Assembly: GCF_003334815.1 (NCBI RefSeq)
Contig: NZ_QOWO01000048.1
DNA: 25,066 nt
Direction: 5' to 3' (one strand)
DNA from: Escherichia coli
Lineage (GTDB): Bacteria > Pseudomonadota > Gammaproteobacteria > Enterobacterales > Enterobacteriaceae
Positions 520 through 18,900 of the stretch are shown piece after piece (within the stretch, counting starts at the first letter, position 1; each line of letters opens with the position of its first letter). The translations under genes and the position numbers were made by a program. The notes beneath the pieces were generated by a model. That model was not told the origin of the DNA and made no database searches. It worked only from the letters and a program-made list of their open reading frames with translations.

Positions 520-882
520 TGGTGGAGCTGGCGGGAGTTGAACCCGCGTCCGAAATTCCTACATCCTCGGTACTACATGCTTAGTCAGTCTTTACATTCG
601 CTTGCCAGCTGCGGACGGACACGCCACTAACAAACTAGCCTGATTAAGTTTTAACGCTTCAACCCCAGGCAGGGCTTCCACGCGATCTCTTTTGGGTTTG
701 ACCTCTCTTGATCCCCGTCCTAAGAGCGGAGGCTAGGGAGAGAGGGCTCTAAGCAGGTTATTAAGCTGCTAAAGCGTAGTTTTCGTCGTTTGCGACTATT
801 TTTTGCGGCTTTTTACGAGGCCAACCGCCCCTCGGCATGCACCTTGGGTTTCGCAAATCCCGTCGAATCCAGAATCAGCCCC
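520..882 (-). ncRNA. ssrA: tmRNA (SsrA, 10Sa RNA), 363 nt
   Basis: Reverse complement reads GGGGCTGATTCTGGATTCGACGGG at the 5' end (882 downward) and ...GTTCAACTCCCGCCAGCTCCACCA at the 3' end (to 520), matching E. coli tmRNA. Internal tag reading frame present. Confidence 0.97.
761..793 (-). other. ssrA: tmRNA tag-peptide reading frame encoding ANDENYALAA plus stop
   Basis: Reverse complement of 761-793 is GCAAACGACGAAAACTACGCTTTAGCAGCTTAA = A N D E N Y A L A A stop, the canonical E. coli degradation tag. Confidence 0.9.
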
Positions 883-3018: not shown

Positions 3019-4680
3019 TTACGCTGCAAGCAGTTCTTTCGCATTCGCCAGTGTATTACGTGTGACTTCACTGCCACCAAGCAGGCGCGCCAGCTCTTGT
3101 AACCGCGCTTTTTTATTCAGGGATTGCATATGCGTTTCTGTCATCGCACCATCGGTTTCTTTGCTGACAAAATAGTGTTGATGACCACATCCCGCGACTT
3201 GTGGCAGGTGGGTAACACACATCACCTGAGTTGATTCGCCGAGTTGACGCAGCAGTTTGCCGACAACTGCCGCTGTTGGACCGCTAATCCCTACATCCAC
3301 TTCATCAAAAATCAGTGCCGGGGTTTCCATTTTACGCGCCGTGATGACCTGGATTGCCAGTGCGATGCGGGACAATTCACCACCGGATGCGACTTTGGCA
3401 ATAGGCTGCATTGGCTGACCTGGGTTGGTGGTTACCCGAAACTCAATACGATCGGCACCGTCAGCGCCCAGGTGATGCTCGTCAAATTTAACATCGATCG
3501 TAAACTGCCCATGCGGCATTGAGAGCGCATGCATACTGTCGGTGATCAGCTGTGCAAGTTCTTCTGCATATTGCTGGCGTTGTTGGTGTAATGCGCGCGC
3601 GATTTCCAGTGCCTGCTGATGATGTTTCGTTACCGCCAGCGCAAGCGTTTCTTGTGAGTCGGCCTGATCGTCCAGTTGCTGCTGTTCTTCCAGTAGCGAC
3701 TGGTAATACTGTGGCAATGCCTCAGGGCTGACGTGATGTTTACGTGCCAGCGAAATCTGTTTTGAGATGCGCTGTTCAAGTTCAAATAGTCGGTTGGGAT
3801 CGAGATCCAGACGATCGCAGTAGTGGCGCAGTTCATCGCTGGCTTCAGCAATCTGGATGGTAGCTTCTTCCAGCATATCAAGTACGCCGGACAGTTTGCT
3901 GTCCATGCCAATCAATTCGCTCACCAGTTGTTTAGCCGTGTAAAGCTGACTTTGCAGGTTTGCGTCTTCACCGTCGGCCATTAATGCCAATGCATTCTGG
4001 CTGGTGGTCAGCAATTGACCGCTGTTCGCCAGACGTTTGTACTCTTCGTCGATTTGTTCAAACTCTCCGGGCTGCGGATTAAATTCGTTAAGTTCTTTTA
4101 ATTGGTATTGCAGCAGTTCCGCACGGGCGGCGCGTTCCTGACTTAACTGTTGATGATGCGCGAGGTCACGGCAGCTTTGATGCCACAACTGATAACGTGC
4201 GGTCATTTCCTGCAGTAGAGAGGTTTCATTGGCATAGCCATCAAGCAGGAATTTTTGGTGCTCAGGTTTGGTGAGTAATTGATGAGCGTGCTGACCATGG
4301 ATCTGAATCAGCAACTGACCCAGTTCGCGCAGTTGTGACAGAGGAACAGCTGTACCGTTGATGAAACCACGGGAGCGACCATCGCTGCTGATCACGCGAC
4401 GAAGCAAACATTCATGCCCGTCTTCAAGCTGGTTTTCTTCCAGCCAGCGCAGAGCCGCTGGCGTATCTTTCAGAGAAAAACGGGCGCACAGGTCAGCGCG
4501 AGCAGCGCCGGTACGCACCATGTCGGCTTCAGCGCGACCACCGAGACAAAGACCGAGGGCATCTATTGCAATAGATTTACCCGCGCCGGTCTCGCCAGTT
4601 ATTACGGTCATGCCGCTATGAAAATCAATCTCAAGCTCACGAACGATAGCAAAGTTGCTGATGGTCAGTTGTGCCAACAT
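3019..4680 (-). CDS. recN: DNA repair protein RecN (SMC-like ATPase), 553 aa
   Basis: Translation [44 protein letters not shown]... with Walker A GETGAGKS; length and sequence match RecN. Confidence 0.97.
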
Positions 4681-4688
4681 AGTCGTTT

Positions 4689-4748
4689 TCCTGTATGAAA
4701 AACCATTACTGTTATTGTGTACAGTATAAACTGGTTTTATATACAGTA
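4689..4748 (-). promoter_or_regulatory. recN: Three tandem LexA (SOS) boxes in the recN promoter region
   Basis: On the recN strand: TACTGTATATAAAACCAGTT (4729-4748), TACTGTACACAATAACAGTA (4707-4726), TAATGGTTTTTCATACAGGA (4689-4708). Each fits CTG-N10-CAG spacing; immediately upstream of the recN ATG at 4680. Confidence 0.85.
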
Positions 4749-4765
4749 AAGAGGCTGGCGTAAAA

Positions 4766-5644
4766 TTAGAATAATTTTTTTGACCAGCCGAGCTTGGTGC
4801 TTAATGTGTTGAAATAACTGTAATCTTTCGGATGAATCAGATTCAGATGGTAATCACAGCGACGAATCAGGACATCTTCACCTTCCTGAATCGGCAGTGC
4901 TATCTGGCTGTCGCAACTGATTTCCAGGTCGTTACGGCGATGCGAAAAACGCAGACGGATCGTGCTGCTGCTGTTTATGACCAGTGGTCGTGCTGACAAC
5001 GTATGCGGGAACATGGGCACCAGGGTAATCGCATCCAGAGAGGGGGTCAGAATAGGACCGCCTGCAGAGAGGGAATAGGCGGTGGAGCCTGTTGGCGTCG
5101 AAATAATTAGTCCATCAGATCGCTGAGAAAACGCAAAGATCTCGTCGATATACACTTCGAACTCAATCATATGCGCCACTTTGCCTGGATGAAGCACCAC
5201 TTCATTTATCGCGGTGCTGATGCGTTTCTGGCAATCTTGCTGACAGACTTGCGCTTCCAGCAAAAAACGTTTCTCGCTGATGTAGTGGCCTTCCAGCACA
5301 TCGGCTAACTGTTGCTGGGCGTTATCGGGGTCAAGGTCAGTCAGGAAACCCAGGTTGCCACGGTTGATTCCAATAACTTTAATATCGTAACGGGCGAGTG
5401 TGCGTGCCGCGCCCAGCATATTACCGTCGCCACCAACGACTACCGCGAGATCAGCTAGTTGCCCAATCTCCGCGAGCGTGCCAGTTTTCACATTCTTCAG
5501 TTGCAGTTCGTGAGCGATTTGTTGCTCAACGATGACCTCGTAACCTTTTGTGCACAGCCAGCGGTAGAGCATTTCATGTGTTGTCAGTGCAGTGGGGTGC
5601 CGTGGGTGTCCCACAATGCCAATACACTTGAAATGATTATTCAT
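4766..5644 (-). CDS. nadK: NAD kinase NadK (PpnK), 292 aa
   Basis: Translation [42 protein letters not shown]... with the GGDGN motif ([14 protein letters not shown]). Confidence 0.95.
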
Positions 5645-5733: not shown

Positions 5734-6360
<627 letters not shown>

Positions 6361-18730: not shown

Positions 18731-18752
18731 AGTGTTGCCTTTTTGTTATCAA

Positions 18753-18784
18753 TAAAAAAGGCCCCCCGATTTGGGAGGCCTTAT
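18753..18784 (-). terminator. pheL: pheA attenuator terminator (leader 3:4 hairpin)
   Basis: On the minus strand: AAGGCCTCCC-aaatc-GGGGGGCCTT followed by TTTTTT, lying between the pheL stop and the pheA start. Confidence 0.75.
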
Positions 18785-18828
18785 TGTTCGTCTTCGCATT
18801 CTGTTTCACACGACGAAACGCCTCCCAT

Positions 18829-18876
18829 TCAGGGGAAGGTAAAAAAGAATGCGAAGAAAAACGGTATGTGTTTCAT
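18829..18876 (-). CDS. pheL: pheA leader peptide PheL (15 aa, Phe-rich)
   Basis: Reverse complement reads ATG AAA CAC ATA CCG TTT TTC TTC GCA TTC TTT TTT ACC TTC CCC TGA = [15 protein letters not shown]; seven Phe codons, the classical attenuation leader. Confidence 0.85.
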
Positions 18877-18900
18877 GTTTGTTTCCTTAAGTGACTTTAG

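Follow-up and report, generated by a model that had tools for sequence, protein, structure and literature searches.

Organisation of the nadK–recN region

The window, meaning the whole stretch of 25,066 nt that was analysed, is ordinary Escherichia coli chromosome extending from ssrA to clpB. Positions 78–25000 align at 100% identity to several E. coli strains, for which the RefSeq gene order is ssrA, smpB, ratA, yfjF, bamE, recN, nadK, grpE and yfjD, continuing to clpB. Matches at the Rfam gathering score were obtained for tmRNA (ssrA; 520–882, minus strand), for the Phe leader upstream of pheA (18752–18877, minus strand) and for the RyfD/Ysr155 small RNA upstream of clpB (22183–22321, plus strand), all as expected in this region of the E. 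coli chromosome. Bases 1–77 are unaligned in the best-matching E. coli genomes, which carry an integrase gene just past ssrA at this point, and this short segment is probably a variable island junction at the ssrA attachment site.

The recN gene (3019..4680, minus strand) encodes a protein of 553 amino acids and starts with an ATG at 4680–4678. Its product scores 1069 bits against the NCBIfam equivalog model NF008121 (cutoff 418). The nadK gene (4766..5644, minus strand) lies upstream of recN in the same orientation and encodes a protein of 292 amino acids that scores 567 bits against the NCBIfam NAD(+) kinase model NF002893, well above the equivalog cut-off. RefSeq agrees with both coding sequences, and the gene identities proposed in a preliminary description of this DNA, which was made from the letters alone, are therefore upheld by the NCBIfam equivalog models and by RefSeq alike. 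The two genes are separated by a spacer of 85 bp that is 67% A/T, in which upstream of recN means towards higher coordinates.

Every one of the 5426 complete E. coli genomes contains the interval 4600–4900. Each of the 5426 also contains the 93-bp recN control region, to which 3530 records are 100% identical; about one third of the E. coli records show some difference from the window within these 93 nt. Both variant E. coli strains examined carry a G→A change at 4683, a position that lies past the Shine-Dalgarno sequence, ahead of the ATG, and in none of the LexA boxes described below.

Three LexA operators upstream of recN

Three adjacent matches to the gammaproteobacterial LexA operator (SOS box; TACTG(TA)5CAGTA, with a 16-bp core CTGT-N8-ACAG whose spacer is A/T-rich) are present on the minus strand between nadK and recN. 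Box 1 (4748–4729; TACTGTATATAAAACCAGTT) has the half-sites CTGT...CCAG, with one mismatch (CCAG) that is a common variant among validated boxes. Box 2 (4726–4707; TACTGTACACAATAACAGTA) is a perfect CTGT-N8-ACAG and the sole zero-mismatch match in the 25-kb window. Box 3 (4708–4689; TAATGGTTTTTCATACAGGA), the weak site, has the form ATGG...ACAG, in which both mismatches fall in the left half and include the C of CTG, and it carries the core motif in part. Boxes 1 and 2 are separated by 2 bp (ta) and boxes 2 and 3 share 2 bp, giving centre-to-centre spacings of 22 and 18 bp. The ATG of recN begins 8 nt past the end of box 3.

Reading of the raw sequence had placed genuine operators to the base. 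The preliminary description had put three LexA boxes upstream of recN, and they were found at exactly the positions that it gave. It had further described them as packed back-to-back, which holds for the span of 4689–4748 and nearly holds for the arrangement, given the 2-bp gap between boxes 1 and 2 and the 2-bp overlap of boxes 2 and 3. Two boxes had been said to match the consensus half-sites well; this applies in full to box 2, which is perfect, but box 1 departs from it by one mismatch. The replacement of ACAG by CCAT reported for the half-site of the third box is literally correct on the plus strand, where box 3 reads TCCTGTATGAAAAACCATTA.

The boxes were scored with a LexA matrix of 20 columns that was built from 17 published E. 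coli SOS boxes (PMC3009722 Table 4), with the recN entry held out, and symmetrised because LexA binds its palindrome as a dimer. The held-out scores of boxes 1, 2 and 3 in the matrix scan were 25.15, 17.85 and 13.25 bits, respectively. The preliminary description had named scores below threshold at all three sites as grounds for rejecting it; instead, they rank first, second and third among ~50,000 positions on both strands, and the fourth-best site reaches 8.0 bits. The best match away from recN, AACTGGATATTGAAAAAGCC (5996–6015, plus strand), lies inside grpE and is at chance level, with 7.3–10.0 bits depending on the matrix.

The exact tail probability of a single position is 1.8e-9 for box 1, 4.3e-7 for box 2 and 5.2e-6 for box 3, and in 3 Mb of Markov-simulated sequence their scores were attained at 0, 0 and 10 positions, respectively. 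With the spacer's own composition as background, the counts expected in the 85-bp spacer are ~9e-7, 1e-4 and 1e-3. Sites of the strength of box 3 are expected at ~0.13 per 25 kb; taken alone, box 3 is marginal genome-wide, and its credibility comes from its position.

As judged by leave-one-out scoring, the 17 validated boxes range from 4.5 to 28.1 bits. On this scale box 1 is among the strongest operators, box 2 is in the lower middle, and box 3 falls between the validated boxes of dinB (13.55) and dinG (13.17), well above that of polB (4.5). The heterology indices of boxes 1, 2 and 3 are 4.2, 9.1 and 11.7, approximate values calculated with our own matrix and not with that of Lewis et al., to which the limit of ~15 quoted in reviews refers.

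Promoter and leader of recN

The consensus scan detected one sigma-70-like promoter on the recN strand, TTTACT-16-TATACT, which matches the consensus at 9 of 12 positions. The predicted −35 hexamer (TTTACT; 4750–4745, minus strand) and the predicted −10 hexamer (TATACT; 4728–4723, minus strand) each extend beyond the LexA boxes by two bases, TT at 4750–4749 and TA at 4728–4727, the latter between boxes 1 and 2. Both dinucleotides are invariant in the relatives compared, which supports the assignment of the hexamers. From this promoter, transcription of recN is predicted to start at about 4716. Box 1 shares bases with the predicted −35 hexamer and with the promoter spacer, and box 2 with the predicted −10 hexamer and the putative start site. 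Box 3 lies in the transcribed leader, where it contains the Shine-Dalgarno sequence of recN (AGGA; 4692–4689, minus strand), read from the sequence 8 nt before the ATG.

Other hexamers, TTTACG-17-TATAAA, are given for the nadK–recN spacer in a genomic-SELEX list (PMC3946193). These correspond to 4764–4759 and 4741–4736 on the minus strand, so that the −10 hexamer would fall inside box 1 and transcription would start near 4728, and the alternative −35 hexamer (TTTACG) sits in a poorly conserved part of the spacer. Under either model the operators are located on core promoter elements.

An ATG at 4706–4704 (minus strand), in the degenerate half of box 3, opens a reading frame of 13 codons that extends to about 4665 and overlaps the start of recN in another frame. 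This frame has no Shine-Dalgarno sequence and begins ~10 nt from the predicted 5′ end of the transcript. Two lineages have CTG in place of the ATG, and loci with 1-nt indels have a shifted frame; 78 of 80 species keep the A. This upstream frame is probably not translated.

A leader hairpin pairing GGUUUUU (4703–4697) with GAAAACG was considered as a reason for the conservation of box 3 and was rejected. Its folding (z = −0.70) is no better than that of shuffled sequences, and the 3′ partner varies among relatives (GAAGGC, GAAAGC, GAAGAC) with no compensating change.

Conservation of boxes 1 and 2 and proposed repression of recN

Conservation was assessed by a scan with RecN of one genome per species, comprising the 80 closest species of Enterobacteriaceae (83–98% protein identity). 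The boxes were scored at 48, 26 and 8 nt from the recN ATG, with a shift of 1 nt allowed. All 80 species have box 1 at the same offset with 10 bits or more (median 23.9), and all 80 have box 2 with at least 15.7 bits (median 22.1). The half-sites of box 2 are retained as CTGT in 79 and as ACAG in 80 species, and its spacer varies freely; this is the signature expected of a palindrome bound by a protein. An extra LexA-like match of 10–11 bits, 71 nt upstream of the recN ATG, was observed in Enterobacter quasihormaechei and Enterobacter hormaechei and is absent in E. coli.

Boxes 1 and 2 combine the LexA motif, a score within the range of validated boxes, overlap with the predicted promoter, and conservation. 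The best explanation of 4689–4748, to which we assign a probability of about 0.9, is that it constitutes the control region of the SOS gene recN with three adjacent LexA operators.

In an undamaged cell, LexA dimers would sit on the three adjacent operators, presumably at the same time. The dimer on box 1 would cover most of the −35 hexamer together with the promoter spacer, that on box 2 would cover the DNA from the −10 hexamer to about +10, which includes the region of the start site, and RNA polymerase would be kept off the promoter by these two. A dimer on the weak box 3 would cover the leader from about +9 to +28 and with it the DNA of the ribosome-binding site; as a third dimer placed beside box 2, it would probably reinforce repression. 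Upon DNA damage, RecA-stimulated self-cleavage of LexA would vacate the operators and a good sigma-70 promoter would fire strongly. The standard SOS mechanism, LexA occlusion relieved by RecA-stimulated autocleavage, is summarised in PMC6590174.

The preliminary description had presented recN as one of the most tightly repressed and strongly induced SOS genes, and published induction data fit this. Induction of recN by ciprofloxacin reaches a log2 fold-change of 4.6, among the highest in the regulon. Mitomycin C induces the gene ~100-fold, and in a strain defective in lexA the factor is 128; in Salmonella, recN is induced 39-fold (PMC8072944). At odds with these values, a recN-lacZ fusion was only 2–3-fold derepressed in a lexA deletion strain (PMC6015884).

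Conservation and role of box 3

The most serious alternative concerns box 3. It holds that the operators are boxes 1 and 2 alone, and that box 3 is kept as ribosome-binding region and U-rich leader, an element of translation initiation, its likeness to a LexA site being incidental or almost negligible. Sequence conservation is 92% in box 3, higher than in the part of the spacer that lies upstream of box 1 (63%) and in the 8 nt that precede the ATG (70%), but box 3 attains 10 bits or more in just 20 of the 80 species and scores below 10 in the other 60. Its median of 9.1 bits is near the best chance matches in the window (8–10 bits), and in the group of Cedecea, Buttiauxella and Dryocola the score drops to 6.4 bits. 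In its left half, 67 species have ATGG and 10 have ATGT (together 77 of 80), and 2 of 80 show a proper CTG; the otherwise near-invariant C of CTG is absent in 78 species, which keep A at that position. The right half, ACAGGA, is 99.6% conserved and contains the Shine-Dalgarno sequence, and the spacer of box 3 is 95% conserved, unlike that of box 2, which is free to vary. One natural E. coli strain, MLI114, carries ATAG in place of ATGG in the weak half (equivalent to position 4704). In Salmonella, box 3 was missed by FIMO (PMC8072944).

These data are consistent with a role of the segment in translation, and the conservation of box 3 is confounded because the Shine-Dalgarno sequence overlaps it. 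Box 3 is conserved as a sequence, not demonstrably as an operator. Against the restriction to two operators, the held-out score of 13.25 bits in E. coli lies between those of the validated dinB and dinG boxes, and the heterology index of 11.7, approximate as it is, compares with a quoted limit of 15 that refers to the matrix of Lewis et al. Even in loci whose spacer differs in sequence, box 3 keeps the form ATGK-N8-ACAG and its spacer stays A/T-rich. Box 3 also abuts box 2, and cooperative binding could offset its weak half-site. Furthermore, the site is listed in the literature as the third recN box (PMC8072944, PMC10714372). On balance, an arrangement of two operators with a fortuitous third match is considered rather unlikely, and three operators of unequal strength remain the preferred reading.

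Within the reading with three operators, box 3 might have a special role. A tentative and rather doubtful proposal is that box 3 has been frozen in evolution as a purposely weak element and does more than serve simple repression by LexA. A is retained in place of C in 78 of the 80 species, although one substitution would yield a much better operator; this would suggest that selection has favoured a weak LexA site, functional only in cooperation with box 2. Box 3 could be a dual-use DNA and RNA element that combines a LexA half-operator, a U-rich translation enhancer and a ribosome-binding site, or, as a third form of such a role, it could act as a roadblock to read-through from a poorly terminated nadK. 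If true, a special role would refine a known system and would not define a new kind of system. The sequence of box 3 is conserved beyond its LexA likeness in the Enterobacteriaceae compared and overlaps the ribosome-binding site, downstream of a gene without a clear terminator.

The 3′ end of nadK and possible read-through into recN

The preliminary description had stated that the interval containing the boxes must also carry the end of the nadK transcript. A hairpin, GGCUGGU...GCCAGCC (4789–4753, minus strand), encloses the nadK stop codon and is followed by UCUUUACUGUAU (4752–4741). The hairpin itself lies outside 4689–4748; its tail, which is U-rich but interrupted, is made up of the predicted −35 hexamer of recN and the start of box 1, and in this respect alone the statement is borne out. 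The hairpin has a folding energy of −14 kcal/mol (z = −2.87), and its stem is composite with a long A/U-rich interior. The terminator scan of 4500–5000 detected no canonical intrinsic terminator and did not call the hairpin at 4789–4753, and a canonical nadK terminator inside 4689–4748 is thereby rejected. The G+C-rich stem, short loop and directly following U run that characterise intrinsic terminators were not found at the 3′ end of nadK.

A comparable hairpin was present in 52 of 79 distinct orthologous sequences, and several genera are without the 3′ arm. Of the hairpin cells, 73% were paired, as compared with 38–52% in slid controls, and two cells showed compensatory double changes; RNAalifold gave no consensus structure for the alignment of the nadK 3′ region. 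The hairpin may be, at best, a weak and lineage-variable terminator. In E. coli MLI114, a G→A change at the position equivalent to 4759 converts a G-U pair of the hairpin to A-U.

This situation raises the alternative that the array, and box 3 especially, serves mainly as a protein roadblock against read-through from constitutive nadK into recN, a need that would arise because nadK has no strong terminator. The two genes are co-oriented and 85 bp apart, no canonical intrinsic terminator was detected in 4500–5000, and the sole hairpin, which about one third of the relatives do not have, is followed by an interrupted U-tract. However, the proposal is purely inferential, as the literature search gave nothing on nadK 3′ ends or on nadK–recN read-through, and occlusion of the promoter by LexA at boxes 1 and 2 already accounts for repression. 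Moreover, the hairpin may terminate adequately in E. coli, given its energy of −14 kcal/mol and z of −2.9. A main function as roadblock is therefore regarded as improbable.

Possible binding of DnaA and chance origin of the boxes

A further alternative is that DnaA co-represses recN through a DnaA-box-like sequence that overlaps the LexA boxes, so that part of the conservation would reflect DnaA binding. A DnaA box overlapping a recN LexA box has been reported, and dnaA(A345S) led to a 2–3-fold derepression of recN-lacZ that was additive with loss of LexA (PMC6015884). Two 9-mers with one mismatch to TTWTNCACA are present in the array, TTTTTCATA (4702–4694, minus strand) inside box 3 and TTATATACA (4737–4745, plus strand) inside box 1. 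In A/T-rich DNA, however, chance alone is expected to produce 9-mer matches with one mismatch, and the effect described is small and rests on one study. Co-repression by DnaA through such a box is judged improbable.

Finally, the idea that the three matches arose by chance in intergenic DNA whose A/T-richness (67% here) raises the scores of an A/T-rich motif can be dismissed, since even with the composition of the spacer as background the expected counts are only 9e-7, 1e-4 and 1e-3, the sites occupy ranks 1–3 of ~50,000 scored positions and their conservation extends over 80 species; a chance origin of boxes 1 and 2 is ruled out by the ranks, the tail probabilities and the conservation among species.

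Comparison with known LexA-controlled promoters

Descriptions of the recN promoter with three boxes date back to the late 1980s, and the promoter is in wide use as an SOS reporter; it is textbook knowledge. Three SOS boxes in E. coli recN are given in PMC10714372, which cites Rostas 1987 and Courcelle 2001, and the recN operators of E. coli K-12 are attributed to Rostas et al. 1987, Fernandez de Henestrosa et al. 2000 and Courcelle et al. 2001 as cited in PMC10714372 and PMC5999292. LexA regulation of recN, the count of three boxes and the strong induction are taken from the literature, and the existence of the sites in this DNA, their scores, the promoter overlap and the conservation were computed here.

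In Salmonella enterica, the three boxes of recN end 8, 26 and 48 nt from its ATG, with the same spacing as here, and the third box is also the weakest, with a heterology index of 12.97 (PMC8072944). The middle box is the best in Salmonella, whereas here box 1 exceeds box 2. Box 3 of S. arizonae begins TCATGG, as compared with TAATGG here, and this difference at position 2 gives a lower score on the Salmonella side. Having been missed by FIMO, the Salmonella box 3 was added by hand by the authors of that study (PMC8072944).

The validated SOS box of dinG (TATTGGCTGTTTATACAGTA) is a close counterpart of box 3 in form: its left half (TTGG) is degenerate and its right half (ATACAG) perfect. The two are identical at 15 of 20 positions and score 13.17 and 13.25 bits, respectively. 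The dinG box, however, is a single operator, whereas box 3 of recN lies downstream of two strong operators and on the ribosome-binding site.

The promoters of lexA and of the colicin genes resemble that of recN in having several LexA dimers side by side on one promoter. Colicin promoters carry two overlapping LexA boxes. The lexA promoter has two operators (PMC9210283), as compared with three sites in recN.

Finding these boxes carries little weight as a discovery and is useful as a positive control for the recognition of operators in this DNA. The operators lie at the same locus as those of E. coli K-12 recN, boxes 1 and 2 are letter-identical to the published sequences (PMC3009722; PMC6015884 Table S1) and the geometry of the three boxes matches that of PMC8072944. 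The comparison with known recN operators proposed in the preliminary description drew on the sequences given in PMC3009722, PMC6015884 and PMC8072944, and the region shows no difference of substance from the recN operators of E. coli K-12.
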